A stretch of DNA of 64,000 nt from Gammaproteobacteria bacterium (GTDB taxonomy: Bacteria; Pseudomonadota; Gammaproteobacteria; Steroidobacterales; Foliamicaceae), in the NCBI GenBank assembly GCA_009845905.1, contig VXYS01000004.1:151285-215284 (forward strand). The letters run 5' to 3'. Every line of letters starts with the position of its first letter. Position 1 is the stretch's first letter. The notes below the pieces were generated by a model. It saw only the letters and a program-made list of their open reading frames with translations. It was not told the DNA's origin and searched no databases. Positions 1,293-61,980 of this stretch are shown here, one piece after another. A program made the translations under genes and the position numbers.

Positions 1293-2938
1293 CCTGGGTG
1301 GGAGGGCGTCCCCTGGGAGCGAGGACGTCCCCCGGGGGCGAGGGCGTCCCGCCCTCGGGGAAGACGGGACGTCTTCCCTCCCGGGTCGGCGGCTCCAGCG
1401 GCGGGCTGTATTCGCTGCCGGTAACGCGCTTCGATGAAGTCGAGGCGCTCCCGGGAGACGCCCCCGCGCACTTCGTCCTCAATGCCGAACACGAGCCAGC
1501 GGTCGTCTTCCTGCCGGTATTCCGGCCATTGCAGGCGGCTCCCCCCGTTCGGATCGCCGTTACGCGCGAAGTCGAGCCAGTAGCCGAACAGGCGTCCCGC
1601 CAGCGCCTGCTGCCCGGCATCGGGCAGGTCCGCCCCGGAAAAGAGCAGCCTGCGGTCGTAGCCGTGCGGCGCGCCCGGCGAGTCGCTCGGGGGCCCGGCG
1701 ACGGGGACATCCAGGTAGTAGATCCATGCCGGGGAGTTCCTGCGCGCCATTCCCATTGCGAGCGTCCGGGCGGCAAGCAGGTAGCGATTGTCCCCGAACA
1801 GGCGCTTTATGCCGATATCCGGAGACTTGTCGAAGTCTTCCCGGTAAAGAGCCCGCGCGGCCGGATAGTCCGCGCCCCAGATGCGTTCGTACGCTTCTTT
1901 CGATATCCCCGAAACCGGCATGATGATGCCTTCGTAGCTGGTTCCGCCGGTCATGACGGGCACATCGTGCTGTTGGCCGGCCAGGAACAGTACGCCGGGT
2001 TCTTCGCGCAGCGTGACACCATCGACCAGCGGCAGGTGAAATCCCTCGACGGCTCTCATCAGCGCCATCGCATCCAGGGCCCGCAACTCGTCGAACGTGT
2101 CCGCGTCGGGAGAAACGCGGTCGATCAGCTCCCGGGCCAGCGACTCCGCGCTCTGCGCGGGATTCAGATCCATGCCCAGCGGGCCGGGCGTGGGAGCGTC
2201 GGCGGTGCGCGGAAGGGCCCAGGTTCCATAACCGCTCTGCGCAATGGCGCCGTGGAACAGCCCCCGCGCCGCGTCGTTCGCCAGCAGCATGCTCACCGCC
2301 ATCCCACCCGCGGACACGCCGAAGACGGTAACCCTGCCCGGATCGCCTCCAAAGGCGGAAATGTTGTCCCGCACCCATTCCAGCGCCATGACCATGTCCA
2401 GCAAGCCGAAGTTGGCTACCGGGCCCTCGAGCGCCGGATGCGCGAAGAAACCGAGCGGTCCCAGCCGGTAGTTGATCGAAACGAAGACAACGCCCCGCGC
2501 TGCGAACAAACCACCCGGCACATCGCTGGTGCCCGCAACGAAGCCGCCGCCGTGAATCCAGACCATGACCGGACGTGCGCCGCCGTCAACGGCGGGCGTC
2601 CAGACATTGAGCGTAAGACAGTCTTCGTCCATTGACCTGACGGGCCGGACCTGGGGACAGGACGGACCGAAATCGAGCGCCTGGCGCACGCCTTCGTGCT
2701 TCGGCTCCGCCTGCGGCGGCAGCCAGCGACGATCTCCGGTCGGCGCGTTGCCGTAGGGAATGCCGCGAAAAACCAGCGCGCCGTTCTCGACGGTCCCTTC
2801 AAACGCGCCTTGCGGCGTTTCAACTACGTTTCCGGCAGACGCCGCACCGGCCGTAAGCACCCAAAGAAGGAATGCGCCAAGCAGAAGCCGAGCGCCCAAG
2901 TCGCAACTACCCTGCCCCGCCTCCTGCGAGCCGGACAC
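1289..2938 (-). CDS. Carboxylesterase type B (secreted); C-terminus runs through a repeat element
   Basis: FRGIPYG, EDCLTLNVW, WIHGGGF, INYRLGPLGF and catalytic G-V-S-A-G motifs; hydrophobic N-terminal signal. Confidence 0.9.
   Translation of the reverse strand: MSGSQEAGQGSCDLGARLLLGAFLLWVLTAGAASAGNVVETPQGAFEGTVENGALVFRGIPYGNAPTGDRRWLPPQAEPKHEGVRQALDFGPSCPQVRPVRSMDEDCLTLNVWTPAVDGGARPVMVWIHGGGFVAGTSDVPGGLFAARGVVFVSINYRLGPLGFFAHPALEGPVANFGLLDMVMALEWVRDNISAFGGDPGRVTVFGVSAGGMAVSMLLANDAARGLFHGAIAQSGYGTWALPRTADAPTPGPLGMDLNPAQSAESLARELIDRVSPDADTFDELRALDAMALMRAVEGFHLPLVDGVTLREEPGVLFLAGQQHDVPVMTGGTSYEGIIMPVSGISKEAYERIWGADYPAARALYREDFDKSPDIGIKRLFGDNRYLLAARTLAMGMARRNSPAWIYYLDVPVAGPPSDSPGAPHGYDRRLLFSGADLPDAGQQALAGRLFGYWLDFARNGDPNGGSRLQWPEYRQEDDRWLVFGIEDEVRGGVSRERLDFIEARYRQRIQPAAGAADPGGKTSRLPRGRDALAPGGRPRSQGTPSHPG
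1293..1385. repeat. Palindromic REP/MITE-like element, family A, composite copy
   Basis: Starts CCTGGGTGGGAGGGCGTCCC directly after TAA. Contains GAGGGCG-TCC-CGCCCTC and GAAGACG-GGA-CGTCTTC hairpins and ends CTCCCGGG. Confidence 0.85.
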
Positions 2939-2953
2939 GGCCGCCTGTCCGTC

Positions 2954-3580
2954 CTAGTCCGTTTCCGGAGCTGCGCAAACCCCGGGCTTGGCGGCGATCA
3001 GCGCCTTGGCCGCGACAAAGCGCGCCCGGTTCTCGTCGGTGGTGGCGAGCGCCTCGCCGGAAATGAACACGCCGAATACCGGTTCGCCCTTGCCGTCATA
3101 GAACAGCACGCCCTGCACGCGGCCCTCGCCCTCGCCGATCTCAAGGTCGAGGGCGTAGATTGCCGCAAATTCGTCAGGACGCAGGTGACCGCGCAGCGGC
3201 TTCGTGTACTCGATATTGAAATACTGGCTTCGTGTGGATGGAGCGCCAGGCGAAACACCGCTCAATACCTCAAAAACGGTGCCTCCCTTGGTGATCAGGA
3301 AACTGGCCTCCGAGACTTCGGACAACGCCGCCCACACTTCCTCAAACGCGCTTCCCGGCGCGGATACGGCCTGTTCGGCAGGCAATGCGGCAACCACTTT
3401 AGCCTCGGGCAATCCCAGGCGCCGGGCGGCGGTAAACGGCAAAACGCCGGCAGATTCCTCATAAAAGGCGCGCACCTGCTCGCGTTCCTGATCCGTAGCG
3501 CAGATTTCCTCCGCCAGCGCTGCGTTCAGGGCCATCAGGCCTGTAAGCGCAATGGACAATTGAACAGTTCTGGTTTTCAT
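2954..3580 (-). CDS. ChuX/HutX-like (heme-binding fold) protein with signal peptide
   Basis: ARRLGLPEAKVVAALP, FEV, YFNI, GHL and FYDGKGEPVFGVF resemble the ChuX/HutX pattern. Start moved to ATG 3580 (MKTRTVQLSIAL...ALA). Confidence 0.6.
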   Translation of the reverse strand: MKTRTVQLSIALTGLMALNAALAEEICATDQEREQVRAFYEESAGVLPFTAARRLGLPEAKVVAALPAEQAVSAPGSAFEEVWAALSEVSEASFLITKGGTVFEVLSGVSPGAPSTRSQYFNIEYTKPLRGHLRPDEFAAIYALDLEIGEGEGRVQGVLFYDGKGEPVFGVFISGEALATTDENRARFVAAKALIAAKPGVCAAPETD

Positions 3581-3634
3581 GGCTGGTTTCCCCTTCCCGA
3601 CCTCCACTCCGGTCGGCAGGCCAAAAAATGGATT

Positions 3635-4807
3635 CTATCCGCGCGCGGCGAAGAAGGCGTGCATGCGGTCCATCGCTTCCTCCAGACGCTCATAGGGCTC
3701 GGCGCCGAAACACACGCGCAAATGCCCTGCCCCCGCCTGTCCGTAGAACGATCCCTCCTCCACGCAGACGCTGGTCTCCTTCAGCAGCGCCCGCGCCAGC
3801 TCGGCGTCGTCCCAGCCGGTCCCTGAAATGTCCGGAAACGCGTAGATGCTGCCCTCCGGCGCCGGACAGCGCACGCCCGGCATCGCGTTCATGCGCTCCA
3901 CCACGAGGTCGCGGCGGCGGCAGTCTTCGCGCACCATTTCCTCGACCGCCTCCTGGGAGCCGGACACGGCCGCGCGTCCGCCCTCCTGGATGAACACGTT
4001 GACGTGGGCGATGTCGTTCTTCGAGATCTTCAGCATGGCGTCGATGAACCGCTTCGGGGCCACGGCGTAGCCCATCCGCCAGCCGTCCATTGCGTACGCC
4101 TTGGTGAAGGCGAAGTGCGTAATGGTCCGCTCCCACATGCCGGGCAGCGAAGCGATGCTGATGTGCCGGGCGCCGTCGAAGACGATCTGTTCGTAGACGT
4201 CGTCCGACATGACCAGGAGGTCGTATTCGATCGCGATGTCCGCCAGTTCCTGCAGCTCTTCGCGGGTATAGACGCGTCCCGTGGGGTTGGCCGGGTTGAC
4301 CAGGACGATCATGCGGGTGCGCGGGCTCAGTCGTTCGCGGATCGCCTTCCCGTCGAGCGCAAAATCCCGCGAACGGTCCAGGGGCGCCGTCACCACCACG
4401 CCTTCCGCCAGTTCGATCTTGTTGATGTGCTGAGGGTAATACGGAGAAAGCAGCATGACCTCGTCACCCGGATCCAGGGCCGCCATGCAGGTGATGTAGG
4501 CCCCGTGCGTCAGACCGCTTGTCACCAGGATCTCGTCGAGGGCCGCCTCGATGCCGTTCCGGGCGGCCAGCTTCTCCGCCAGCGCCCGGCGAAACGGCTC
4601 ATTGCCCAGGAAATCGCCGTAATGCACCATCCCGGAATCCAGGGCCGCCTTGCAGGCTTCCTTGATATGCGCCGGCGTGTCGAAGCTGGGCATGCCCACT
4701 TCCAGGTGGATCACGTCGACGCCCTGCGCCATGAGCGGCAGGGCTTCCTCGTACATGCCGAAGCTCTTCTCCGAACTCTGGACGATCCGGTCTGCGGGCC
4801 ATTTCAT
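3635..4807 (-). CDS. PLP-dependent aminotransferase class I/II
   Basis: NPANPTG, SDDVY and FTKAYAMDGWRMGY (PLP lysine) motifs. Confidence 0.92.
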   Translation of the reverse strand: MKWPADRIVQSSEKSFGMYEEALPLMAQGVDVIHLEVGMPSFDTPAHIKEACKAALDSGMVHYGDFLGNEPFRRALAEKLAARNGIEAALDEILVTSGLTHGAYITCMAALDPGDEVMLLSPYYPQHINKIELAEGVVVTAPLDRSRDFALDGKAIRERLSPRTRMIVLVNPANPTGRVYTREELQELADIAIEYDLLVMSDDVYEQIVFDGARHISIASLPGMWERTITHFAFTKAYAMDGWRMGYAVAPKRFIDAMLKISKNDIAHVNVFIQEGGRAAVSGSQEAVEEMVREDCRRRDLVVERMNAMPGVRCPAPEGSIYAFPDISGTGWDDAELARALLKETSVCVEEGSFYGQAGAGHLRVCFGAEPYERLEEAMDRMHAFFAARG

Positions 4808-4828
4808 ACGCGTGTCCTTCTTCCTGTT

Positions 4829-6418
4829 TCAGCGGTCCCGGAACACCGAGCCCGGCCGCTCGACGAAAGGCTCGCGCCAACCGGGGAAGCGGTCGCGGAA
4901 TATGTGGTTTTGTCCATAGTGCGTGTCGAGCAGGATCGCCTTGGCCGAGCCGCCCCGCCACAGGTCGTATTCCGGCGCCGAATGGCGCGCAAAGAAGTGG
5001 GTAAGCCGTGCGTCCAGTTCCGCCACCACTTCCGCGTGCGCCGGATCGTCGATGAGATTGCGCTTTTCTCCGGGATCGTCGGCCAGGTCAAACAGCGTGT
5101 GAGGCTCGCCGGTGTCGAACCGCTTCATGTATTTCCAGCGCCCGGAGCGCACGACGCGGACCGTAACGAACTCGAAAAACGCCGTGCTGTCCCATTCCGT
5201 TTCCGCGTCTTGCAGCATCGGGGCAAAGCTGCGCCCCCCGGAGTTGCGGATCTCGAGCTCCTCGAGGCCCACGAAATCGAGCAGGGTCGGGAACACGTCC
5301 ACCTGGTTGATGAATTCCTCGCGCACCGCCCCCTCGGGCACCCGTCCGGGCTGCGAGAACATCAGCGGCACCTCCATGTTGACCTGGTGCACGGTGAACG
5401 GAAAGCTCCAGGACGTATTGCCCCAGAGGCCGCCGTGTCCGAACCGCGAGCCCTGGTCGGAGGTGTAAATGACCAGCGTGTTCTCCCGCAGCCCCTGTTC
5501 CTCCAACGCTTCCATCAGCCGCCCTACCCCGTCGTCCACCATCGTCGTTTCGGCAGCCGTATTGATCATCGCCACGGGATTGTTGATAGCGTTGATCGCG
5601 CGCCAGGCGGTGGTGCCGTCGCGGACCATTTCGCCGGTCGGGCTCCTGCCCCGCGCCCAGGCTTCCAGGTAGGGATGGATGGGCTCGTGCGGCATCGACG
5701 GCGGGTTCTGACGGTAACGCTCCGCGTGCCGGTTGCGGGGCGGAAACAGCACGGTCGGCGGCAGCATGTACGGACCGTTGTACGACAGGTACAGGAAGAA
5801 AGGCTCCTCGCTGCCCTGCCGCTGCCCGATGAACTCGATCGCCTTGTCCGTCCAGAAGTCTGTGAGGTGCTTCTCCACGCGGTAATGCCGGCCGTTGTCG
5901 ATCACCTCCTGGTCGTAGAAGGTAGTCGTATGGCCCGACGGGAAAGTCACCCACCACGAGAACCCCAGTTGCGGGCGCTCGTGCCGCCCCAGGTGGTACT
6001 TGCCCACCAGTCCGGTGAAGTAGCCGGCGTCCGCCAGCGTCTGCGGCAGGTTGCGGAACTCCTCGATCGCCGACCAGCCTTCCAGCTCCGGCTGGGGAGG
6101 CAAGGCCACGTGTATGCCTGTCTGCGAAGGCATGAGGCCGGTCAACAGGGCGGCGCGCGCAGGCGAACAGACGCCGCTGGCCGCGAAGGCGTTGCGAAAC
6201 AGCACGCCCGAACGGGCCAGCGCGTCGATATTGGGCGTTGCGATTTCGTTGTTGCCGTAGGCGCCCAACAGGCGCGCGGACTGGTTGTCCGAAACGATCA
6301 GGATGACGTTCGGACGCTCTGCAGCGGAAGATTCCTGCGCGGCCGCGCCCGGAAACACCGCGGCCAACAGAAGTGCGAGGCCGGGCAGCGATCCTGCGGC
6401 TTTGATGGTGGTCGTCAT
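4829..6418 (-). CDS. Sulfatase (Cys-type formylglycine), secreted
   Basis: PNVILIVSDNQ, CSPAR, GKYHLG and YTSDQG motifs. Start moved to ATG 6418, followed by a signal peptide. Confidence 0.9.
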   Translation of the reverse strand: MTTTIKAAGSLPGLALLLAAVFPGAAAQESSAAERPNVILIVSDNQSARLLGAYGNNEIATPNIDALARSGVLFRNAFAASGVCSPARAALLTGLMPSQTGIHVALPPQPELEGWSAIEEFRNLPQTLADAGYFTGLVGKYHLGRHERPQLGFSWWVTFPSGHTTTFYDQEVIDNGRHYRVEKHLTDFWTDKAIEFIGQRQGSEEPFFLYLSYNGPYMLPPTVLFPPRNRHAERYRQNPPSMPHEPIHPYLEAWARGRSPTGEMVRDGTTAWRAINAINNPVAMINTAAETTMVDDGVGRLMEALEEQGLRENTLVIYTSDQGSRFGHGGLWGNTSWSFPFTVHQVNMEVPLMFSQPGRVPEGAVREEFINQVDVFPTLLDFVGLEELEIRNSGGRSFAPMLQDAETEWDSTAFFEFVTVRVVRSGRWKYMKRFDTGEPHTLFDLADDPGEKRNLIDDPAHAEVVAELDARLTHFFARHSAPEYDLWRGGSAKAILLDTHYGQNHIFRDRFPGWREPFVERPGSVFRDR

Positions 6419-6516
6419 ACGCCGGGAGAATACCCGCAAGCAATCGGTGTGTGCAAAGGGCGGGCTAAAATGACTGATCGATCCCGCAGGGGAGACACAT
6501 AGCGGCAGGAAGGTCA

Positions 6517-7587: not shown

Positions 7588-7599
7588 AAATCGCGGAAA

Positions 7600-8463: not shown

Positions 8464-8494
8464 TTGCGGTTCCTTCTTAAATCCGAACGCCATC

Positions 8495-8568
8495 TGGAGG
8501 CCAGGGCCGGAATTGAACCGGCGTCCACGGATTTGCAGTCCGCTGCATAGCCACTCTGCCACCTGGCC
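8495..8568 (-). tRNA. tRNA-Cys (GCA)
   Basis: GGCCAGGTGGCAGAGTGG...CTGCAAA...GGTTCAATTCCGGCCCTGGCCTCCA; cloverleaf with encoded CCA. Confidence 0.97.
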
Positions 8569-8617
8569 TGGCTGTTCGGCAGGCCGCGCCCCGCCGCGCT
8601 GATTCCTGCCGGAAAAA

Positions 8618-8692
8618 TGGAGCGGGAAACGGGACTTGAACCCGCGACCCCAACCTTGGCAAGGTTGTGCTCTACCACTGAGCTATTCCCGC
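8618..8692 (-). tRNA. tRNA-Gly (GCC)
   Basis: GCGGGAATAGCTCAGTGGTAGAGC...TTGCCAA...GGTTCAAGTCCCGTTTCCCGCTCCA. Confidence 0.97.
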
Positions 8693-8706
8693 TCGAAGCG
8701 GCGCCG

Positions 8707-8736
8707 AGTCTAGCAGTAACGCCGCTCCCGATTCAA
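8707..8736 (-). promoter_or_regulatory. Putative sigma70 promoter for tRNA-Gly/tRNA-Cys
   Basis: Minus strand TTGAAT-18 nt-TAGACT with extended -10 TG, about 14 nt upstream of the tRNA 5' end. Confidence 0.55.
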
Positions 8737-8741
8737 TAGAC

Positions 8742-9488: not shown

Positions 9489-9506
9489 ACCTGTATCCCC
9501 CAATGA

Positions 9507-13927: not shown

Positions 13928-13946
13928 GAAAAGGCTCCTGGCTTAG

Positions 13947-26903: not shown

Positions 26904-28330
26904 GCCGGGAATACGACGTCATCGTGGTCGGCGCCGGTTCCGCCGGCCTGCCGGCGGCCATCTTCGCGGCCCAGGGCGGCGCCCGCGTGCTGCAGATCGA
27001 CGCCGACACGCGCGTCGGCGGGACGCTCTACTGGTCTTCCGGCCAGATCAGCGCCGCGGGCACGCGCCAGCAGGCCGCACTGGGCATCGAGGACAGCCCC
27101 GAGGAACACTACCAGGACGCCCAGCGCATCGCCTACGGCGGGATAGACCCGGTCCTCGGGCGGCTGGCGACAGGCGGCGCCGCGGACACCCTGCACTGGC
27201 TCATGGACATCGGTCTCGAGCTGGCGCCGGAAACGCCCGTCGCAGGGATGGTGCACGAACCCTATACGACGCGCCGGTACGTCTGGGGCCATGAGCAGGC
27301 GATTTCGATTCTCAAGGTGATCGAGCCCGTGCATCGTGAACTGGTGGCGTCGGGGGCGATCGACCTGCGGCTGCAGACCCGCATGACCGGCCTGCTCACT
27401 TCCGCTTCCGGGTCCGTGGTCGGAGTCAAGGCCGAAAGCAACGGCCAGGAAGTCGAATTCCGGGCGCCGAGCGTGGCGCTGACCACCGGCGGTTACGCCG
27501 CCAATCCCGAACTGTGGAACGAGGTCACGCCCTACCCCCTGCATTCCCATTGCAACCCGTTTTCACGCGGTGAAGGCATCATTGCGGCCCGCGAGATCGG
27601 CGCCAAGATCGACCGCACCGACCAGTTCCTGGCCACCTTCGCGGGCTTCCTGCAGGACCCGGGCGATCCCCTGAGCGCCTGGTTCTTCCAGCTTGCGCCG
27701 GCCTACCGGGCGCCATGGGAAATCTACGTGGACGGCCAGGGCAAGCGGTTCCTGCGCGAGGACCACCCGAGCATTCACTACAGCGAAACTTCGCTGTTGA
27801 AGCAGCCCGGCATGCGCATGGTCATCGTGTTCGACGAAGGCATACGCCAGAACGCGACGCCGATGTCCGTATTGGACAAGCAGGGCCGAGACCTGCGTCC
27901 CGAATTCAATACGCACCCGTCGTTCCAGAAGGCCGACTCCATCGAGGAACTGGCCGGCCGGTTCGATATCCCGCCGGACAACCTCGTGGCGACGGTCAAT
28001 CGTTACAACGAAGCCGTCGACAATCACGAGGACCCCGAATTCAATCGCCTGTACATGCCGCGCCGCGTCGACCGCGCGCCGTTTTACGGCATTGAGGCGG
28101 TGGGCGTGACCGTGATCAGTCCCGGCGGCGTCAACGTGAACGGCGACCTGCAGGTCGTGGACGAGTCCGACAAGCCGATCGGCGGCCTCTACGCCGCCGG
28201 CGAAATACTCGGCTTCACGCGCCTGTCGGGCGCGGCCTTCGTCGGCGGCATGTCGCTGATGCCGGCCATGACCTTCGGCCGCATGATCGGCGAGCAGGCC
28301 GCCGCCCAACTGAAAGCCCGCGCCGCCTGA
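26900..28330 (+). CDS. FAD-dependent oxidoreductase (fumarate reductase/ketosteroid dehydrogenase superfamily)
   Basis: [18 protein letters not shown] and GLYAAGE motifs; ATGA overlap with the SPFH gene. Confidence 0.85.
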
Positions 28331-28417
28331 CCTGGAAGCGAGGGCGTCCTGGGTGGGAGGGCGTCCCGCCCTCCTTTAAGGCGGTGACGCCGTGGGGGCC
28401 ATGCCCCCACTCCCAGG
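28331..28417. repeat. Family A palindromic element, composite copy
   Basis: CCTGG...GAGGGCG-TCC-CGCCCTC...GTGGGGGC-CAT-GCCCCCAC...CCCAGG, directly after TGA, between convergent genes. Confidence 0.85.
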
Positions 28418-39628: not shown

Positions 39629-39701
39629 TGGGTCGTGCAGGAATCGAACCTGCGACCTACTGGTTAAAAGCCAGCTGCTCTACCAACTGAGCTAACGACC
39701 C
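39629..39701 (-). tRNA. tRNA-Lys (TTT), CCA not encoded
   Basis: GGGTCGTTAGCTCAGTTGGTAGAGC...CTTTTAA...GGTTCGATTCCTGCACGACCCA; follows cpoB as in other gammaproteobacteria. Confidence 0.96.
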
Positions 39702-41176: not shown

Positions 41177-41208
41177 CCTGATCGAGGGCGGGACGCCTCT
41201 TTCCCAGG
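41177..41208. repeat. Family A element, short copy abutting the tolB stop
   Basis: Minus strand TGA|CCTGGGAAAGAGGCGTCCCGCCCTCGATCAGG. Confidence 0.75.
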
Positions 41209-42549
41209 TCAGTTTTCATAGGGTCCCCAGGCGGGTTCGCGAAGGATTCCCTCGGGCGCGCGCAGCAGGCGCACTACGCCGCTGTCGATGAAATAGACGC
41301 CCAGCCCCCGGCCGGCGGTCGTGCCCGCGCCGAAGATCAGCGCGCGGCCGTTGGGAGCAAAACTCGGCGACTCGTCCAGCGGGCCGTCGGTAAGCAGGCG
41401 CAGCGACTCGTCACGCAGGTCCATGAGGCCGATCCTGAAGCGCCCGTCCTGCTGGTGCACGACCGCCATCTGGTTCCGGTCCGGCTGCAGCCGCGGCCGC
41501 GCATTGTACGAGCCGGTAAAACTGACCCGTTGCGCCTGGCCGCCCCGCGCCGGCGCGACGTACACCTGCGGGCCGATCCCGCGGTCGGACGTGAAGTACA
41601 CGCGATCGCCGTCAGGGGAAAATTCGGGCTCGGTCTCGGTGGCGGAATGGCGCGTCAGGCGCCGCGGCGAGCCCCCGTCTATCGGGTAGATATAGATGTC
41701 GCTGTTTGCGTTCACGTTCCGGGCCACCGCCAGGAATCTCCCGTCGGGCGACCAGGCGGGAGCGCTGGCGGAGGTCCGGTCCGGCGACAGGGGCCGGCGC
41801 TGGCCGGTCGCGACCTCCTGCACGAAGACCTCGGCGTGGCCGGCTTCGAACGACACGTACGCCAGCCAGGCGCCGTCCGGCGACCAGCTCGGCGACATGA
41901 TGGGATCGGTCGAGCGCAGCACGACGATCGGGTTCTGGCCGTCGGCGTCGGCCACGATCAGCCGGAATTCCTCACGGCCCGGCGTGACCTGAACATAGGC
42001 CAGGCGGGTGGAGAACATTCCGCGCGCGCCGGTCAGCTGCTCGTAGACCAGGTCGGCGATACGGTGGGCCGTGGCGCGGAATGCGTCCCGGGAACTTTGC
42101 AGACGGTAGACGAGGAGCGATTCGCCCGCAAAGACGTCCACCAGCTCGAACTCGACGGTCGGGTTGGCTTCGCTGCCCGACACATGGCCGACGAGCACGG
42201 CCTCGACGTCCATGATGCGCCAGTTGGTCAGGCGCATTTCCGAAAAACGGGTCGGCCGGGTAATCATCGTCTCGCGGCCCATCGGCGCGAACTGTCCGGT
42301 CCGCTCGAGGTCGGCCTCCACGATCTCGGCGAAGTCATACGGCAGCCCCAGCGTCACGCGCCACTCGAAGGGAACGATCGCGATGGGAATGGCGCGCTGC
42401 GTGGAGCGCGTAATGACGATATCGAGCTGCGCGGAGGCCGCGAGCGGCAGGAGCGCGAGGACGGCGAGCCAGAGCGCCTGGGAGGGAGGACGTCTCGTCC
42501 TCCTGGAGGGCGGGGACGCCCTCCCACCCAGGATATAGCGAAGTTTCAT
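41209..42549 (-). CDS. tolB: TolB
   Basis: PIAIVPF, HRIAD.VYE.LTG..G.FSTRLAYV and WD40-like SPSWSPDG repeats. Confidence 0.95.
   Translation of the reverse strand: MKLRYILGGRASPPSRRTRRPPSQALWLAVLALLPLAASAQLDIVITRSTQRAIPIAIVPFEWRVTLGLPYDFAEIVEADLERTGQFAPMGRETMITRPTRFSEMRLTNWRIMDVEAVLVGHVSGSEANPTVEFELVDVFAGESLLVYRLQSSRDAFRATAHRIADLVYEQLTGARGMFSTRLAYVQVTPGREEFRLIVADADGQNPIVVLRSTDPIMSPSWSPDGAWLAYVSFEAGHAEVFVQEVATGQRRPLSPDRTSASAPAWSPDGRFLAVARNVNANSDIYIYPIDGGSPRRLTRHSATETEPEFSPDGDRVYFTSDRGIGPQVYVAPARGGQAQRVSFTGSYNARPRLQPDRNQMAVVHQQDGRFRIGLMDLRDESLRLLTDGPLDESPSFAPNGRALIFGAGTTAGRGLGVYFIDSGVVRLLRAPEGILREPAWGPYEN
42477..42532. repeat. Family A element inside the tolB 5' coding region
   Basis: Terminal inverted repeat CCTGGGAGGGAG/CTCCCACCCAGG with two internal hairpins; read in frame. 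Confidence 0.85.
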
Positions 42550-47898: not shown

Positions 47899-47919
47899 GA
47901 GGGTCGGCCGTCTGCGTCT

Positions 47920-49347: not shown

Positions 49348-49365
49348 ATAACAAGAATATATAAA

Positions 49366-50637: not shown

Positions 50638-50640
50638 TGC

Positions 50641-53448
<2,808 letters not shown>

Positions 53449-53502
53449 CGCACAAGGCATTTTATAGCGCGGGTAACTTCCGTAGGCGACAATACGCACG
53501 CC

Positions 53503-54544: not shown

Positions 54545-54556
54545 CGTGTCTAGTGC

Positions 54557-54620
54557 GCAGGCGTCCCGCCTTCGGGGAGGGCGGGCGCGCTGAGAAGGCA
54601 GCACCCTCTCTCCCGGGAGT
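54557..54620. repeat. Family A element, degenerate copy
   Basis: AGGCG-TCC-CGCCTTC core and a CTCCCGGGAG end. Confidence 0.65.
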
Positions 54621-54624
54621 TCGC

Positions 54625-56307
54625 TTGAACATCGGCAAGAACGAATTCTGGCTCGGCGCGGCGGCGCTGCTGACGCTGGCGGCGGGCCTCGGCCTGCGCG
54701 ATCCGTGGGCGCCGGACGAACCGCGCTACGCGCTGATCGCCGCCGAAATGATGCAGTCCGGGGACTGGTCGGTGACCCGGCTGGGCGGCGTCATTTACGC
54801 GCAAAAGCCGCCCGTGTATTTCTGGCTGCTGGCCGCCGCCGAATGGCTGGCCGGCCTCCGGTTCGGGTTCCTGCTGCCGTCGCTCCTGGCGGGCCTGGGA
54901 ACCCTTGCGCTCGTCTGGGACCTGGCCCGCCGGCTCTGGTCGTGCGAGACGGCATGGTGGGCGGCCCTGGGGCTGCTTGCCTGCCTGCAGTTCACGATGC
55001 AGGCCCGCAGCGCGCAGATCGACGCCGTCCTGGTCCTGTTCACGACGCTGAGCCTCTACGGACTGCTCCGCCACCTACTGCTGGGGCCGGACTGGCGCTG
55101 GTTCAACGTCGGTTTTCTTGCCGCGGGCGCGGGCGTGATGACCAAGGGCGTAGGCTTTCTGCCGCTGCTGGTGCTGTTGCCCTGGGCCGGAATGCGCTGG
55201 GCCGGCTGGAGCTTGCCGCGGCTCGGCGGCGGAACGCGATGGCTGCTCGGGCCGGCGGCGTTCCTTGCACCGCTCGCACTCTGGCTGGTCCCGCTGTTGC
55301 TCCGGGCCCAGGGCGATCCTGAAATCGCCGGCTACCTGGACAACCTGCTGTTTCGCCAGACCATTACCCGTTACGCGGACCCCTGGCATCACTTCCAGCC
55401 CTTCTGGTACTTCTTCGTGGAAGTCATTCCATGGGCCTGGTTCCCGCTCGTTCTGCTGTTGCCCTGGCTGGTTGCGAGGTGGGCGCGGCGCTGGCGCGAC
55501 CGCGATGCAAGCGTCGTCCTGCTTGCGGGCTGGATCGTTCTGGTCCTGCTGTTCTTCACCATCAGTTCCGCCAAACGCGATGTCTACCTGCTGCCGGTGG
55601 CGCCGGCGCTGGCGCTGCTCTCGGCGCCGCACCTCCCGGAACTTGCCGTCCGGCTGTCCTGCCGACGCATCCTGCGCGCCGCGGCGCTGCTGCTGTCGCT
55701 GGTCCTGGCCGCCGGTTCCGCCTGGCTGCTGTTCGTGGACACGGAGCGGCTGGCCGAGCTGTCGGCACGCTACGAGACCGGCGCCGGACCTCTCTGGACG
55801 CTGTTCATCGCGGCGCTGGTCGGCGCCGTTCTCGCCCTGGCCGTCCCCGCCCGGCGGACCGCGGCGATGTTTGCGGCGTTCATGCTTCTCGGCTGGCATG
55901 TCTGGGGCTGGGTGCTGCAACCGCAGATCAACGACGCCCGCTCCGGTGGACGTATCGCGGCCCGCACGCTGGAGGCCATGCCGGGAGACGCTCCTCTGGG
56001 ACTGGCGCACTGGCGCGCCCAGCAGGTTCTGCATCTCGACCGGCCGGCGGTGCATTTCCAGCGTGGCGGTCTCACGGGACAGGAAGAAATGGAACAGGCC
56101 GCCGCATGGCTCGCGATGGACGGCGAGCGCCGGCTGCTGGTGCCGGCCGAACACCGTCAGCCGTGCTTTGGCGCGGGCGGGGGATTGCGCCTCGGGTACG
56201 CCCACCGTCGCGACTGGGTGCTATTGTCCTCCGAAGACTTGAGTGGCGCCTGCACCGGGATTGTCGATCCCGCAAACCAGGTTCGCCTTCCGGCGCTGCG
56301 TCCGTAG
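54625..56307 (+). CDS. ArnT/GT83-family glycosyltransferase
   Basis: PDEPRY, KPPVYFW and TKG motifs; multiple TMs; start TTG 54625. Confidence 0.88.
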   Translation: MNIGKNEFWLGAAALLTLAAGLGLRDPWAPDEPRYALIAAEMMQSGDWSVTRLGGVIYAQKPPVYFWLLAAAEWLAGLRFGFLLPSLLAGLGTLALVWDLARRLWSCETAWWAALGLLACLQFTMQARSAQIDAVLVLFTTLSLYGLLRHLLLGPDWRWFNVGFLAAGAGVMTKGVGFLPLLVLLPWAGMRWAGWSLPRLGGGTRWLLGPAAFLAPLALWLVPLLLRAQGDPEIAGYLDNLLFRQTITRYADPWHHFQPFWYFFVEVIPWAWFPLVLLLPWLVARWARRWRDRDASVVLLAGWIVLVLLFFTISSAKRDVYLLPVAPALALLSAPHLPELAVRLSCRRILRAAALLLSLVLAAGSAWLLFVDTERLAELSARYETGAGPLWTLFIAALVGAVLALAVPARRTAAMFAAFMLLGWHVWGWVLQPQINDARSGGRIAARTLEAMPGDAPLGLAHWRAQQVLHLDRPAVHFQRGGLTGQEEMEQAAAWLAMDGERRLLVPAEHRQPCFGAGGGLRLGYAHRRDWVLLSSEDLSGACTGIVDPANQVRLPALRP

Positions 56308-56324
56308 CAGGCGAGCCGAAACGC

Positions 56325-57296
56325 TTAGGCCGAATACTCCCGGAACCAGCGGACAAACTTCGCGACGCCTTCCTTCAAATCAACACTGGGCTCAAACCCG
56401 AAATCCCCGCGCATGGCCGACATGTCCGGCAACGTGGCGCGCATCTCGCCGGGCGGTTCCGGCGCGAACTCGACCTCCGATTCAACGCCCATGGTCCGGC
56501 CGAGAATGCGAATGAAATCCAGCAGCTCCACGTCTTCGGTCGAACCCAGGTTGTAGAGTGCCGCCGGGGGCTCTCCGGCGGGCGCTCCGCCATCGAGGAC
56601 GGCCAGCGTTCCCCGCACGGCATCGTCAATATAGGTAAAAGCGCGTCTCTGGCGTCCGTCTCCAAACACTTTCAGGGGCTTGCCGGCCCGCAGGCCTTCG
56701 GCGAACCTTAATGCCGCCATGTCCGGCCGACCCCACGGTCCGTATACCGTGAAGTAGCGAATTCCGGTGCTGGGCAGCCCGTGTATCCGGGCATACGAGT
56801 AAGCCAGCAATTCGCCCGAGCGCTTGGTGGCCGCATATACGCTTCTCGGGCGAGCGGCGGCGTCCTGTTCGGAAAAAGGTGATTGGTCCGTATCGCCATA
56901 CACCGACGAGGACGAGGCGTACAGCAGGTGCTGTACGCCGTTGCGAACGCAGCACTCCAGCAGCACGGTGAATCCGGCGATATTGCTTGATATGTACTGA
57001 TCCGGCGCTTCGATCGAATAGCGCACACCTGCCTGGGCAGCCAGGTGCGCCACTTGCGAAAATTCACGCCGCTCGAACAGGGACTGCATCCCGCTTTCGT
57101 CCGTCAGTTCCAGCTTGTGGAACGAAAACCCGTCATGCTCCCGCAACCGGGCCAGGCGGGCATTCTTCAGCGCCGGGTCGTAGTACGTATTCAGGTTGTC
57201 CACGCCAACAACCTCGCGACCATCGGACAACAGCGCCTTCGCGATCGCGTGACCGATAAAACCGGCCGCACCCGTAATCAGAATCGGCGTCTTGAT
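56325..57296 (-). CDS. NAD-dependent epimerase, UDP-glucuronate 4-epimerase-like; lacks a canonical start
   Basis: ITGAAGFIG, HLAAQAGVRYS, YAATK and FTVYGPWGRPDMA motifs; expected start position reads ATC. Confidence 0.8.
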   Translation of the reverse strand: MKTPILITGAAGFIGHAIAKALLSDGREVVGVDNLNTYYDPALKNARLARLREHDGFSFHKLELTDESGMQSLFERREFSQVAHLAAQAGVRYSIEAPDQYISSNIAGFTVLLECCVRNGVQHLLYASSSSVYGDTDQSPFSEQDAAARPRSVYAATKRSGELLAYSYARIHGLPSTGIRYFTVYGPWGRPDMAALRFAEGLRAGKPLKVFGDGRQRRAFTYIDDAVRGTLAVLDGGAPAGEPPAALYNLGSTEDVELLDFIRILGRTMGVESEVEFAPEPPGEMRATLPDMSAMRGDFGFEPSVDLKEGVAKFVRWFREYSA

Positions 57297-57306
57297 GTCG
57301 GTCCAG

Positions 57307-58626
57307 CTAGGTCGAGGCGCGGACTTCCTTCGCGGACATGCCCGGGGCTCGCACCAGCACGACCAGCGCAGCGATGACCACTAGGAAGTTGACGACCCCC
57401 ATCATCGCAAACGGCGCCCCCCTGCCGATCTTGTCGAACACGATTCCGCCCACGAAGCTCGTGCACAGGATGGAGAATGCGCCCACCAATCCGAAAACGC
57501 CCACCACCGCGCCCCGCCGCTCCTTCGGCGCTTCCTGGCCAAGCAGGGCCCCGCCCGACACCAGCGCGGCGATCTCGCCGATGCCCACGGCAACACTGGC
57601 AAGCAGGGCGGCGGTAACGAACGGGTCTTTGGCCAGGTACATGGAGAAATAGGCCACTCCGGCCACGCTGAAACCGAAAACCACGGTAACCACCCGATTC
57701 AGGCGGTCGGCAATGAACCCCATGATGGGCGACCACAGCACGCTGGTGCCGAACACCAGCGCGAACATGATGCCCGCCCGCTGCATGCCCTCGGCGCTGG
57801 TCAGCCCCACGTCGTTGCTGTGCTGGACCACCCAAAGCGGTAGGAATATGCCGACCGCCACGAGGTCGCCCCTGGAGGCGAAGGACGTCATGAAAGCGAG
57901 GGCGATCCGGGGGTTTTTCGCGGCCTCGGAGAAACCCTTTCCCACCTTGGCCAAAAGCGGCTCCTGCGTTTGATTCTGCGCAACCCGTCCCGAGCGCCAC
58001 GAAAGGCGGATCACCAGCGCGACGAACAGCGCGAAACCCACCATCAGCCAGCACGTGTAGATGCCCGCGTCGGCCGGGCTGATCCCCATTTCGGTCAGGT
58101 AACCGGGCAGATTGCCGATATTTCGGGACATTACCGCCATGCCGATGGCCGTCATGATGCTGCCGATGCCCAGAAGCAAACCGCGCGAACGGTTGGCCGG
58201 CAGGTCCTGCAGCGATGTCCCGTACATCACCGGGGCAATCGCGGCGCCGACGGCAAATACGGCGCGGTAGGCGAATATCTGAAACTCGTTCTGCGCCAGC
58301 GGGTAGATCAGCAGCCCCAGCGCCACAAAACCCAGCCCGATGACCATGATCACGCGCCGGCCGAAGTTGTCCGAGGCCGCGCCCACGATGCCCATCAGCA
58401 GCAGGACCACGATCTCCTGCATCGAGGCCAGTTGCCCTGTCAGTTGCCCCTGGTTCTCGGTGATGCCGAAGACTTCCGTCAGGAGGTAGGGCTGTATGAA
58501 GCCGATAAAGCCCAGGAGCGGTATTACGGTAAGCCCGGCAAACATGACGCCGCCGGCGTTGAGCCAGGTATAACCGAGCGTCAGCGTCAGCGGACCGATA
58601 CGGCGGGGTTCGCTTGTCTCACTCAT
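57307..58626 (-). CDS. MFS transporter, paralog 2
   Basis: About 12 hydrophobic segments; motif A GAASDNFGRR. Confidence 0.9.
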   Translation of the reverse strand: MSETSEPRRIGPLTLTLGYTWLNAGGVMFAGLTVIPLLGFIGFIQPYLLTEVFGITENQGQLTGQLASMQEIVVLLLMGIVGAASDNFGRRVIMVIGLGFVALGLLIYPLAQNEFQIFAYRAVFAVGAAIAPVMYGTSLQDLPANRSRGLLLGIGSIMTAIGMAVMSRNIGNLPGYLTEMGISPADAGIYTCWLMVGFALFVALVIRLSWRSGRVAQNQTQEPLLAKVGKGFSEAAKNPRIALAFMTSFASRGDLVAVGIFLPLWVVQHSNDVGLTSAEGMQRAGIMFALVFGTSVLWSPIMGFIADRLNRVVTVVFGFSVAGVAYFSMYLAKDPFVTAALLASVAVGIGEIAALVSGGALLGQEAPKERRGAVVGVFGLVGAFSILCTSFVGGIVFDKIGRGAPFAMMGVVNFLVVIAALVVLVRAPGMSAKEVRAST

Positions 58627-58635
58627 GGCGTGCGA

Positions 58636-59949
58636 TCAGGTCGAAGTGCGGACTTCCTTTGCTGCCATCCCCGGTGCGCGGATCAGCACGTACAGGGCAA
58701 CCAGCGCCACGACGAGGTTCACTATTCCCATCATGACGAACGGCGCCACCCGGCTGATCGTGTCGAAAACGATGCCTCCGAAGTAGTTCGTGCAAAGGAT
58801 GGAAAAAGCGCCGATAAGACCGAACACGCCTACCACCGCGCCACGTCTCGCCTTCGGCGCTTCCTGCCCCAGCAGCGCGTTGCCGGTGATGATGACGGAA
58901 ATCTCGCCGATGCCCACAAACACGCACGCGACCAGCGCGATGTTGAGGTACGGGTCCTCGACCAGCGCCATGCCCAGGTACGCGACTCCGGCAACCGCAA
59001 ACGCAATGAATACCGCCAGAACGCGGTTCATGCGATCCACAAACCGGCCGATAAAGACGGCTACAAGAAGCCCGATGCCATTGATCGCCGCAATCATGAT
59101 GCCCGCCCTTCTCGTGCCCTCGGCGGTGGTCAGACCTGCGTCCCAGCCGTCCTGCACCACCCAGAGCGACAGGAAAGTCAGGATCACGACCAGGTCGCCG
59201 CGGGAAGCGAACGAAGTCAGGTAAGCAAGAGCGATGCGGGGATTCCGGACCGCGCCGGAGAATCCCTGCGCCAGGTTCCGCCGGACAGGCTCGCGTGGCG
59301 CGCCGGCCGCCACGCGGCCTGCGCGCCAGGTCAGCCGGACCATCAGCGCAACGATGGCCGCGAATGCGACCATGCACCAGCAGGTGTAGATGCCGGCGTC
59401 CTCGGGCGTGAGGCCGCGCGCGACCAGGTATTCGGGCAGCCTCGCAATCGTAAGACCCATCACGATGACGCCCCCGCCCGTGGCGATGCTGCCGAACCCG
59501 ATGAACTGACCGCGGGAGCGGTTCGCCGGCGTGTCCTGCATGGAAGTCCCGTACATCAGGGGAGCCGTCGCGGCCCCGAGTGCGAATACCGCCCGGTATC
59601 CGTAAATCTGCAGTTCGTTCTCGGCCAGCGGGTAAACCAGAAGCCCCAGGCCCACCAGGCACAGACCCACGACCATGAGTACGCGCCGCCCGAAGTTGTC
59701 GGACGCCGCCCCGACGACCCCCATCAGCGCGATCACGATGATTTCCTGCAGCACTCCCAGATTGCCCGTCATCCGCCCGTGAAAAGCGGGGTCAATCTCG
59801 AATACCTCCTTGAGAAGAGTCGGCATGATCAGGCCCATGAAGGCCAGCAAGGGGATGATCGAGAAACCGCCCAGCAGCACGCCGAACGCGTTCAGCCGCG
59901 TGTAGCCTTCCGCAAGGACGATCGGACCGAACTTCCTCGGTTCGCTCAT
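58636..59949 (-). CDS. MFS transporter, paralog 1
   Basis: Colinear with the neighbour (GAASDNFGRR, FASRGDLV, GQEAPK.RRG). Confidence 0.9.
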   Translation of the reverse strand: MSEPRKFGPIVLAEGYTRLNAFGVLLGGFSIIPLLAFMGLIMPTLLKEVFEIDPAFHGRMTGNLGVLQEIIVIALMGVVGAASDNFGRRVLMVVGLCLVGLGLLVYPLAENELQIYGYRAVFALGAATAPLMYGTSMQDTPANRSRGQFIGFGSIATGGGVIVMGLTIARLPEYLVARGLTPEDAGIYTCWCMVAFAAIVALMVRLTWRAGRVAAGAPREPVRRNLAQGFSGAVRNPRIALAYLTSFASRGDLVVILTFLSLWVVQDGWDAGLTTAEGTRRAGIMIAAINGIGLLVAVFIGRFVDRMNRVLAVFIAFAVAGVAYLGMALVEDPYLNIALVACVFVGIGEISVIITGNALLGQEAPKARRGAVVGVFGLIGAFSILCTNYFGGIVFDTISRVAPFVMMGIVNLVVALVALYVLIRAPGMAAKEVRTST

Positions 59950-59957
59950 GTCAACTC

Positions 59958-60028
59958 CCCGGGAGCGAAGGCGTCCCGCCTTCGCGGAGGGCGGAATGGC
60001 CGTGGGGGCGATGCCCCCACTCCCCAGG
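59958..60028. repeat. Family A element, composite copy
   Basis: GAAGGCG-TCC-CGCCTTC plus GTGGGGGC-GAT-GCCCCCAC, ending CCCAGG. Confidence 0.85.
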
Positions 60029-60054
60029 TCTGCAAGCGCAGTATCTTGCGGAAC

Positions 60055-61323
60055 TCAACCGCCGCGCCGCTTCGCCTGGACGGCGTCAAGAATCGCGATG
60101 TTGGCCTCGGTAATGCCCTGCTTCTGCGCCTCGGAGATCACGGCGCTGATGGCCGCGCCGCGGAACATGCGCGGAATCTTCTTGAGCCGCGCCGCCGCGC
60201 CGGGCGTAAACACCATGCCGTGCCTGTTCTCGTTCAGCTTGCTCAGGAACTTGGGATCGACGTCCACGGCATGTTCGTCTTCCGGTTGCGCCGCCCCATT
60301 GCCCGATTCGGCAGCCGCGCCATTGCCTTGCGCCGGCTCTTCGCCGTCCACGTGGTAGGTCAGTTCGGGCTTGTTGACGAAAAGGTCCTCCACGCGGATG
60401 AAGTCGGCATTCCTGTCGTACTCCATGCGCGGCTCCTCGTCGGGGTTCAGCGACGGGCGGCGGTCGTCGATAATCGGTATACGGTGCATCAGCCGGAACG
60501 CCGGCGAGAAGTCGTTGATCCCGCGGTGCTGCGTGCATCGGTTGTCCCATATCGCCACCGAGTTGTCGCGCCAGAAGAAGCGGCACTCGTGCTCCGGCTG
60601 GTAGCTGTGCTCGAGCAACATTGCAATCAGCGCATCGCTTTCGTCCTGGTTCAGCTCCATGATGCGCGACGTGGTCATCTGGCATACGTAGAGGCACTTG
60701 CGGCCCGTTTCGGGGTGCCTGCGAACCACCGGGTGCACGACCGGCGGGTTGCGCTTCATCATGTCTTCATAGGCCTTGGCGCCCCCGCCCTCGAGAATGC
60801 CCGGGCCGAAGTTCTTCGACAGGGTCTGTTCCGCGGTCAGGCCCTCCAGGAACTTCTGCATGGGTTTGGAAAGGCTCGCGTACGCCTTCTCCATGTCGCA
60901 CCAGATGGTGTTTCCGCCGCCGGTGGGCATGGTCAGACCGCGGAGAATGGACATGCGGGACGGGTAATCGCGGAAGATGTCGTCCGTGTGGTAGTTCACG
61001 TCGCCGCCGATGGTCTGATACTCGTCCATGCGCTGCAGGCGGATCATCGGGTAGCCCTCGACCTGCGGTATCGAACCCGGGCCTTGCGGCATCCCGAACT
61101 TGCGGGCCAGCCTCAGGTGCTGCTCGTCCGTCATCTCCTGGTCACGAAAGAAGATGACCTTGAATTCCAGCAGCGCCGCGTAGATTTCGTCGATGACGTC
61201 CTGGGCGAGGTCGTCGGCCAGGTTGGCGCCGCTTATTGTCGCGCCCAGCGCACCCGACAGCGGTTCCGCTTCCAGATGCTTGAATTCCGGCAGGTCGCGC
61301 TGGGAAGTAAACAGGTATGACAT
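60055..61323 (-). CDS. TauD/TfdA Fe(II)/2OG dioxygenase with C-terminal PCP_red-like domain
   Basis: VIFFRDQ, YHTD, HPVVRRHPETGRK, WDNRCTQH and MHR motifs. Start ATG 61323. Confidence 0.88.
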   Translation of the reverse strand: MSYLFTSQRDLPEFKHLEAEPLSGALGATISGANLADDLAQDVIDEIYAALLEFKVIFFRDQEMTDEQHLRLARKFGMPQGPGSIPQVEGYPMIRLQRMDEYQTIGGDVNYHTDDIFRDYPSRMSILRGLTMPTGGGNTIWCDMEKAYASLSKPMQKFLEGLTAEQTLSKNFGPGILEGGGAKAYEDMMKRNPPVVHPVVRRHPETGRKCLYVCQMTTSRIMELNQDESDALIAMLLEHSYQPEHECRFFWRDNSVAIWDNRCTQHRGINDFSPAFRLMHRIPIIDDRRPSLNPDEEPRMEYDRNADFIRVEDLFVNKPELTYHVDGEEPAQGNGAAAESGNGAAQPEDEHAVDVDPKFLSKLNENRHGMVFTPGAAARLKKIPRMFRGAAISAVISEAQKQGITEANIAILDAVQAKRRGG

Positions 61324-61426
61324 AGGAAATCCCCCAATGCCCGCGCTGCCAGCATACCCTAACCAGGGAGCACGGGCATGACCCCCGCCATCGGCGTGTC
61401 CCGTGCTCCCGTGATATGGTCGCGCA

Positions 61427-61951
61427 ATGCCCCGGTCCGGCAACAGGCGTCTGTTTTTCGCGCTGTGGCCCGACGACGACCTTCGCACCGGCATCGTCCG
61501 CGCCACCCGCGCCGAAGTGAGAGGAACGGGCGGCAAGCCCACGCCGCCCGAGAATCTGCATATGACGCTGCATTTCCTGGGACCGACTCCACAGGAACTC
61601 ATTCATCCACTGATCGAGCGGGTGTCGGCCTTGCCGCTGGACCCGTTCGAGTTGACGCTGGAGCAATACGGCTACTGGCAGCGTGCAAGAACCCTGTGGC
61701 TGGGCCCGAACGAAACCCCTCTCCCACTGATGGAACTGGTCCGCGACATCGGCCGGATCTCGCACGAACTGGGGCTGCCCCGAAACCGGCGCGCGTTCAT
61801 CCCGCACATGACCCTGGCGCGAAAGGTCAATCGCCTCACGCCGAGGGAACCGCCTCGTCCCTTGCACTGGCCGGTAAACGAGTTCGTGCTGGTGGAGTCG
61901 GTACTCGGCGGGCGCCACTCCCGCTACTCCATCCTCGAACACTTCGACTGA
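61427..61951 (+). CDS. thpR: RNA 2',3'-cyclic phosphodiesterase (2H family)
   Basis: RLFFAL and two HxT motifs (HMTLHFLG, PHMTLAR). Confidence 0.92.
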   Translation: MPRSGNRRLFFALWPDDDLRTGIVRATRAEVRGTGGKPTPPENLHMTLHFLGPTPQELIHPLIERVSALPLDPFELTLEQYGYWQRARTLWLGPNETPLPLMELVRDIGRISHELGLPRNRRAFIPHMTLARKVNRLTPREPPRPLHWPVNEFVLVESVLGGRHSRYSILEHFD

Positions 61952-61980
61952 CCCCTCGGAGCGAGGACGTCCCGTCCTCG
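61952..61980. repeat. Family A element, minimal copy after the thpR stop
   Basis: GGAGC-GAGGACG-TCC-CGTCCTC. Confidence 0.7.

Follow-up and report, generated by a model that had tools for sequence, protein, structure and literature searches.

Palindromic repeats among the genes of a 64-kb window

The stretch of DNA considered here, referred to throughout as the window, covers 64,000 nucleotides (C7:151285-215284) of a 2.80-Mb, 13-contig assembly (G+C content, 64.6%) from the genus Candidatus Foliamicus, which is known from metagenome-assembled genomes (MAGs) of uncultured Gammaproteobacteria. A literature search for the genus name found no paper mentioning Candidatus Foliamicus. Among the genes of the window, which include a tol-pal operon, lie seven palindromic repeats (Table 1). 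These seven palindromes are true copies of a single mobile repeat family of the genus, of the type known as repetitive extragenic palindromic (REP) sequences or, when combined in inverted pairs, as REP doublets forming hairpins (REPINs). All seven copies listed in a first-pass annotation are present, none of them more than 2 nt from where it had placed them, and a looser scan of the window for modules of the repeat detected no additional copy, the other matches being isolated 16-mers with three mismatches. The window contains 6 matches to the core hairpin pattern GARGRCG-N3-CGYCYTC, versus 0.01 expected from dinucleotide shuffles, and a second hairpin, GTGGGGGC-N3-GCCCCCAC, occurs twice versus an expectation of 0. 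Genes were assigned with a rough open reading frame (ORF) caller, whose stop positions are reliable and whose start positions are not; this caller extends some ORFs too far, through repeats, and calls spurious antisense ORFs (e.g., 57970..61320), and tallies of loci lying inside a gene that derive from it were excluded from the evidence.

Table 1. Copies of the palindromic repeat in the window, with their component parts and neighbouring genes
Feature	Coordinates	Strand	Composition	Neighbouring genes
REP cluster between convergent genes	1293..1385	.	truncated units 1293-1311 and 1312-1330; inverted doublet of unit A 1331-1356 (hairpin 1340-1356), 1-nt joint, inverted unit with hairpin 1360-1376 and terminus 1377-1385	begins directly after TAA of amidohydrolase gene
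REP mosaic	28331..28417	.	truncated unit 28331-28347; unit A 28348-28373; degenerate inverted unit; W hairpin GTGGGGGCCATGCCCCCAC (28392-28410); terminus TCCCAGG	fills whole spacer from TGA of FAD oxidoreductase gene to stop (28419) of convergent S41 peptidase gene
Degenerate REP singlet	41184..41208	-	CCTGGGAAAGAGG-CGTCCCGCCCTC; 1-nt deletion in left arm	directly 3' of tolB stop (TGA, 41209-41211, minus strand), upstream of pal
56-nt inverted REP doublet, REPIN-like	42477..42532	.	three-way-junction fold	in frame inside tolB ORF of tol-pal operon
Decayed REP doublet	54557..54617	.	left terminus gone; insertion in second hairpin	
REP mosaic	59958..60028	.	unit A2 (hairpin 59967-59983); degenerate inverted unit; W hairpin 60002-60020; terminus TCCCCAGG	between stop (60055) of TauD-family gene and start (59949) of MFS gene, both minus strand
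REP singlet	61954..61979	+	CCTCGGAGCGAGGACGTCCCGTCCTC	2 nt after TGA of LigT-like gene

The four stop-abutting junctions described in the first-pass annotation are all as reported, with CCTGG following a TAA at 1290, a TGA at 28328 and a minus-strand TGA at 41209-41211, and CCCC following a TGA at 61949. Where the terminus of an element lies just 5' of a start codon, the palindromic CCCGGG followed by AG or GAG creates a Shine-Dalgarno-like GGGAG or GGGGAG; such a motif is located 6-7 nt before the TTG start at 54626 (54612-54628) and before the minus-strand ATG at 59949 (59950-59962). A search of the window against Rfam identified four tRNA genes, all on the minus strand (8498-8568, 8621-8692, 39629-39701 and 62979-63052), none of which is associated with a repeat copy, and no family matching the repeats.

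The 26-nt unit, its population and its probable transposase partner

The focal genome (G000) was searched with a 26-mer, allowing up to 5 mismatches, using the reversed genome as a control, and matching modules were clustered into loci of 26 nt or more. Oriented listings of the core hairpin indicate that the true unit is 26 nt long and reads CCYGGGAG-(C/G)-GARGRCG-TCY-CGYCYTC; the composition of columns in 174 ends and 152 units gives the same CCYGGGAG(C/G) start. The first-pass annotation had described a 7-bp stem with a 3-nt loop and covarying arms. The hairpin and the covariation of its arms are borne out, but the bases flanking the 7-bp arms also covary, being C..G 64 times and G..C 45 times, and the stem is therefore 8 bp. 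The core hairpin occurs approximately 150 times genome-wide and about 95% of the pattern matches have perfectly complementary arms. Among 109 distinct units, 93.9% of stem cells are paired and 78 cells show changes on both sides of the stem, versus 25.4 +/- 3.7 after shuffling (none of 500 shuffles reached the observed value). The 26-nt unit was found 152 times, and a second unit, the B unit (CCTGGGAGCGAGGGCATGTCCCTCGC...), 46 times, with no matches to either in the reversed genome. The B unit shares its first 15 nt with the main unit and then continues into a different hairpin, GCGAGGG-NCATG-CCCTCGC, of which the second hairpin noted in the first-pass annotation (GTGGGGG...CCCCCAC) is a doubly compensated variant.

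A count of copies across the genome, which had been proposed as a check on the repeat family, yielded 138 loci, spread at 8-14 per 100 kb over the large contigs. These consist of approximately 47 singlets, approximately 30 inverted doublets and approximately 25 mosaics containing a B or W hairpin; some loci include truncated half-units. A doublet is 55 nt long, with its two hairpins separated by 1 nt and its outer CCYGGGAG/CTCCCRGG tails paired, and single-strand folding of doublets produces three-way junctions with z-scores of -3 to -6. The two units within each doublet differ at 3-10 positions. The truncated half-units, comprising a tail, a left arm and a loop and ending in ...GCGTCC, are arranged head to tail before complete units, as at 1293-1330 and 28331-28347; they may have arisen by slippage or by cleavage and joining within the loop.

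The null hypothesis of the first-pass annotation was that the palindromes are independent intrinsic terminators or convergent hairpins and do not form one family. G+C-rich hairpins located after stop codons are indeed what this hypothesis would predict. However, the 138 loci agree in the sequence of the loop, the linker and the unpaired tail, and at none of them does a T-tract follow (a run of four or more T within 12 nt, both strands considered). Some copies lie within ORFs or form arrays beside a transposase gene, and the family is restricted to one genus, within which its copies are polymorphic for presence and absence. We consider the independent-terminator hypothesis to be refuted by these observations and assign it virtually no probability.

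The distribution of the unit was determined in 22 species-representative genomes of Candidatus Foliamicus (identified below by G-numbers) and in 19 other genera of the order, with one mismatch allowed. The unit is confined to the window's own genus, and no copies were detected in the 19 other genera. The number of copies per genome ranges from 0 to 509: six genomes have none, one has a single copy, and the others have 9-90, 126 (G000), 141, 395 (G020) or 509 (G002), with the counts for G012 and G001 being too low as the main variant in these genomes differs from the search pattern. Exact master units account for 304 of 509 copies in G002 and 197 of 395 in G020, versus 24 of 126 in G000. The 152 units of G000 represent 112 distinct 27-mers, and no two of its 55-nt doublets are identical (median of 8 differences). 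Judged from this divergence, the G000 population appears to be old and its amplification to be over.

Searches with PF01797 and with protein queries identified exactly one REP-associated tyrosine transposase (RAYT) in each of five congeners (G002, G020, G012, G001 and G014), two of which, G002 and G020, have the largest and most uniform repeat populations. The RAYT of G002 is 246 aa long, contains the motifs PNHVHVLV and YIHHNPV, scores 96.3 bits against NCBIfam NF047646 ('REP-associated tyrosine transposase'; cut-off of 80) and matches the E. coli TnpA-REP (PDB 4ER8) in an alignment in which the HUH and Tyr motifs coincide. Each of the five RAYT genes is located between inverted arrays of the 26-nt unit; for example, the G002 gene is flanked on one side by 11 units repeated in tandem every 29 nt and on the opposite side by 6 units in inverted orientation. 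Units flanking the RAYT genes read GGGAAY instead of CCYGGGAG. In G012 and G001, the seventh stem pair of the RAYT-flanking units has a lineage-specific change from G-C to T-A or A-T, which suggests that the RAYT and its REP have changed together. An extra module, GGAGTTTTCGCAGCGGGCGCCGCTGCGCTGRCGCGCAGGGAACAC, is joined to REP units in RAYT-positive species (in the tolB flanks and at G002:C1:987020-987320) and was not seen in G000. The frame of the G001 RAYT (G001:C1:2045562-2046176) contains one internal TAA, and this copy may be a pseudogene.

One flank of the RAYT locus is common to all five genomes and both flanks are common to four. These flanks map in G000 to C13:6138-7154 and C13:8690-9993, leaving a 1.5-kb slot between them, and a tblastn search for a RAYT remnant in G000 detected nothing at this syntenic slot or elsewhere. 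Based on this synteny, G000 has lost its RAYT from a conserved, single-copy locus. Thus, a RAYT gene flanked by the same units, one of the checks proposed for the family, exists in five congeners but not in the focal genome, where the gene has been lost. The slot in G000, which lies outside the window, contains a gene for a metallo-beta-lactamase (MBL)-fold protein (C13:7385-8637; motif HAHEDHVGG). REP remnants edge this gene at approximately C13:7300 and at approximately C13:8640-8690, the latter directly after its TAG stop.

Insertion sites, stop codons and reading frames

Orthologous sites were compared by means of anchors in the flanking sequence. Empty sites in relatives were another proposed check, and of the seven copies in the window, five have a cleanly empty orthologous counterpart and a sixth a REP-free one. 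At 54557, G013 has an intact 55-nt doublet and G000 a decayed copy; the site is empty in eight other congeners, where it reads TGA-cgt-TTG and the stop and the next TTG start of the coupled genes are 3 nt apart. The copy at 59958 is shared with G013, other REP versions are present in four species, and the site is empty in G005, G007, G016 and G006. The copy at 61954 is shared with G006, the site being empty in G013, G005, G007, G016 and G014, which have a stop-to-stop spacer of 4-6 nt (e.g., TGA-CCCGCG-CTA). Between the 61954 singlet and the convergent stop lies a 31-nt stretch, GAAATGCCGCCGGCGATTCAGGATTCTTTTA (61980-62010), that is unique in the genome; as this stretch is common to G006 and missing from the empty sites, it arrived with the repeat. 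Clusters of differing composition occupy the 28331 site in eight species, with empty sites in G016 and G021, and the 1293 site contains clusters in four species, a remnant in one and nothing in two. Neither tolB site is occupied in the two relatives whose TolB is most similar (94-95% identity), and the sites are filled in more distant ones. In the REP-free G009, the site orthologous to 28331 (G009:C1:1971610-1972100) contains a different, nearly perfect palindrome of approximately 150 nt.

These empty sites also address how the repeats choose their positions. The first-pass annotation had proposed that the element targets CCTGG and had noted that most copies are bounded by CC(T/C)GG...CC(A/G)GG. 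The bounding sequences are present but are the termini of two inverted units, not a flanking target, CCYGGGAG being the 5' tail of the unit itself. None of the clean empty sites (TGA followed by CGTTTG, TGA followed by CTGCAACC, TGACCCGCGCTA and TAACGGCGGTATCA) contains CCTGG, and no base upstream of the terminus is conserved. CCTGG was also rejected as a target on the basis of its frequency, since the motif occurs approximately 7,700 times in the genome and so does not explain the placement of the repeats. Direct repeats flanking the 138 loci are no commoner than at random control positions, and a search of the same loci for long target duplications that copy gene ends produced a score distribution equal to that of the control, with one plausible case. 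This case is a singlet outside the window (C8:276701-276726) that is flanked by imperfect copies (approximately 14 of 19 bases) of a stop/start overlap, TGACGACGCATGCCCTGAC and TGACCACGCATGCTTGAAC; the arrangement resembles a duplication, around the insert, of the junction between two overlapping genes, and it is the sole such case among the 138 loci.

The lack of CCTGG in the empty sites, of conserved upstream bases and of an excess of direct repeats fits a mechanism of the Y1/HUH type and argues against a duplicating miniature inverted-repeat transposable element (MITE), an alternative raised in the first-pass annotation. Mobilization by another enzyme, such as a DDE transposase acting on CCYGGGAG inverted termini, a DUF559/Vsr-fold nuclease or a GIY-YIG nuclease, would make the link with the RAYT secondary. 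The 8-9-bp inverted termini of the doublets are compatible with such an enzyme, as is the carriage of repeats by G000, which has no RAYT. Against it stand the dispersal of single units as well as pairs, the lack of target-site duplications and of a conserved target, and the occurrence of the two most numerous and most homogeneous populations in genomes that have a RAYT. In addition, it is exactly the 26-nt unit that makes up the inverted arrays around all five RAYT genes, and this unit covaries with the RAYT lineage. We regard a mover other than a RAYT as very unlikely.

The placement of the repeats relative to genes is highly nonrandom. They occupy 10.8% of convergent gene junctions, 2.6-2.9% of unidirectional junctions and 0.5% of divergent junctions. 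Of the 138 loci, 41 have an edge no more than 2 nt from a stop codon, versus 1.9 +/- 1.4 expected for random noncoding positions; this adjacency is approximately 20 times that expected by chance and involves all three stop codons. In many convergent pairs the element fills the entire stop-to-stop spacer. Spacers in this genome are naturally tight, 41% of REP-free convergent spacers being 20 nt or shorter, and this explains part of the adjacency. Known REP families exhibit the same placement habit (PMC3733652).

One explanation for this pattern is that the repeats are maintained in the RAYT-less G000 mainly through use by the host. As transcribed 3' hairpins lacking U-tracts, they would shield mRNA ends or modulate the termination and coupling of translation, and their location at stops and their intact stems would be due to selection and not to history; this possibility is compatible with an origin through RAYT activity. 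The extreme placement at stops is consistent with such a use, in particular in unidirectional pairs, where the gap to the upstream stop is 0-2 nt although 55-180 nt are free downstream. Other supportive features are the high level of pairing in the stems while tails and loops vary, the more frequent contact of a singlet with the stop through its tail side (20 times versus 9), and the established effects of REPs on mRNA in other bacteria (reviewed in PMC8266576). However, close relatives manage well without copies at these sites, both tolB-flanking copies being missing from G016 and G006 and the 61954 copy from G013, seven congeners have no copies or one, and decay is visible at 54557 and 41184. 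Both orientations are found after stops, the tight native spacers account for some of the adjacency, and the intactness of stems is in part an ascertainment effect of pattern-based detection. Maintenance through host use is thus unlikely, although its probability is appreciable.

Two window copies are read as part of an ORF. The 42477-42532 doublet lies inside tolB (41209-42549, minus strand), whose ORF starts at the ATG of an ATGA overlap with tolA, preceded by GGAG, and the doublet is read through in frame. The N-terminus of the G000 TolB is MKLRYI-LGGRASPPSRRTRRPPSQ-ALWLAVLALLPLAASAQLD, with the doublet encoding the 18 residues LGGRASPPSRRTRRPPSQ in the n-region of the signal peptide, while TolB proteins of relatives without the element read MKLRGIFFAILAVLPLTASAQLD and MIRALCLAALALLPLTASAQLD. 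In ten genomes that were compared, the first in-frame start of tolB (or the adjacent codon) is the ATG overlapping the tolA stop. REP doublets or clusters are present at the start of tolB in four other species, all of them in frame from the same start, making five species with G000. As signal peptides are normally removed on export, the mature TolB would be unchanged. At the other end of a protein, the carboxylesterase ORF (1289..2938, minus strand) runs through the 1293-1385 cluster and acquires a repeat-encoded C-terminal tail of 31 aa. The carboxylesterases of G003 and G005 have a stop in the joint between the hairpins and end after 9 repeat-encoded residues, and those of REP-free relatives end in ...RSAATPAD.

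A further reading is that the hairpins have been co-opted as U-tract-less elements acting at 3' ends or in termination coupling, and perhaps also as translated segments, so that they would be more than fossil transposons. This suggestion derives from the near-exact abutment to stops and the persistence of intact stems long after the loss of the RAYT, to which can be added that, in at least five species, the TolB doublet has remained in frame with the conserved ATGA start. We rate co-option of this kind as quite improbable.

A probable REP-RAYT system with orphaned copies

The interpretation that we favour, with a probability of roughly 85%, is that the elements are REPs or bacterial interspersed mosaic elements (BIMEs) of REPIN type, that they are nonautonomous partners of a RAYT (TnpA-REP, Y1 HUH) and that they have been orphaned in G000. 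The REP/BIME-like, nonautonomous nature proposed in the first-pass annotation is well supported by the 138 loci, the restriction to one genus, the variable copy number, the empty sites and the RAYT genes within inverted arrays in five congeners. By analogy with the E. coli TnpA-REP and with IS200/IS605, the RAYT would bind to single-stranded DNA at the folded hairpin and the adjoining 5' tail, and would cut the unit and rejoin it at new sites without generating target duplications. Only copies with an intact hairpin would be copied, which would keep the arms complementary. Across the genus, the RAYT occupies a conserved locus as a single-copy gene, surviving in 5 of 22 species-representative genomes, two of which contain 400-500 mostly identical units. 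Its loss in G000 has orphaned the approximately 140 REP loci, which have diverged and for which only decay or deletion is left. Copies persist where they are least harmful, overwhelmingly in the first few bases after stops, where they are probably transcribed as 3' hairpins; a few are found in tolerant coding positions, such as the TolB signal peptide and the C-terminus of the carboxylesterase.

Several observations weigh against this interpretation. Insertion into the lagging strand, as in IS200/IS605, might be expected to produce an orientation bias. The orientation of singlets relative to GC skew shows no bias (13, 16, 12 and 11 in the four classes). A search of G000 for Y1_Tnp (PF01797) detected no homologue, and mobilization in this genome is historical, not current. 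RAYT-positive G014 has few copies (54, in an assembly that is 78% complete). The presence of all five RAYT genomes among the 15 repeat-bearing genomes of the 22 is not significant on its own (hypergeometric p of approximately 0.11). A GTAG 5' tag is absent from the 174 ends and 152 units, and this tag is crucial for those TnpA-REP enzymes that have been studied (PMC8266576).

Compared with known systems, the repeats show every structural, distributional and genetic hallmark of a REP/BIME/REPIN-RAYT system, except for the GTAG tag and a RAYT in the focal genome. As in the systems of E. coli (PDB 4ER8), Pseudomonas fluorescens and Stenotrophomonas maltophilia (Bertels & Rainey 2011, PMC3116915; Corneloup et al. 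2021, PMC8266576), the repeats are short, high-copy-number palindromes that form inverted doublets and multiunit mosaics. The RAYT resembles those of known REPtrons in being single copy, apparently vertically inherited and flanked by inverted REP arrays, and the palindromes, being short and essentially perfect, resemble group 3 REPs (PMC8266576). Further shared traits are the extragenic location near the 3' ends of ORFs, with a preference for convergent over unidirectional and divergent junctions, the lack of target duplication, and the larger and more uniform populations where a RAYT is present. In contrast to known REP-RAYT systems, the tag is CCYGGGAG (GGGAAY beside the RAYT genes) and not GTAG, and a short stem of 8 bp, a 3-nt loop and a doublet linker of 1 nt give a compact three-way junction.

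Di Nocera et al. (2013; PMC3733652) described the GTAG- and CGTC-tagged REP superfamilies, which are likewise found less than 20 bp from the 3' ends of ORFs and as head-to-head dimers, and of which occasional intragenic copies encode 20-30 residues, N-termini included. Neither tag is an unpaired terminal motif in the Foliamicus repeats, however, and their termini abut the stop codon and do not supply it. In REPs of the CGTC-tagged superfamily, CGTC is terminal and unpaired, the stem is 8-9 bp long and begins with A-T pairs, and the loop has 4-5 nt (PMC3733652). Membership in this superfamily was rejected, as the Foliamicus unit has a 3-nt loop and a stem starting with G-C and A-T, and its CGTC is found only internally, where stem and loop meet. 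Unlike known REP-RAYT systems, the family belongs to an uncultured, sponge-associated genus, and the focal genome is without any RAYT. Rickettsia palindromic elements are palindromic repeats of approximately 100-150 bp, many copies of which lie in coding sequence and can be translated in frame. The Foliamicus family shares this in-frame translation of palindromes but is shorter and mainly extragenic, its intragenic copies being rare.

In summary, a suspicious family of palindromes has been resolved into an ordinary REP-RAYT system, and an uncultured, sponge-associated genus joins the hosts of such systems. The REP unit lacks the canonical GTAG tag and yet flanks, and is associated with, a bona fide RAYT. 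For annotation, ORF extensions through repeats should be treated with caution, as these are repeat derived, as exemplified by the N-terminus of TolB and the C-terminus of the carboxylesterase. Within this one genus, populations are expanding and uniform in RAYT-positive genomes and consist of diverged orphans in RAYT-less ones, and other genomes have no copies at all, a series suited to the study of how REPIN populations persist or decay. If the hairpins were indeed co-opted, the RAYT-positive, orphan and purged genomes would constitute a natural series for distinguishing REPIN decay from host co-option, and the genus would offer a REP-RAYT pair without GTAG in which to investigate the role of the 5' tag in determining where cleavage takes place.

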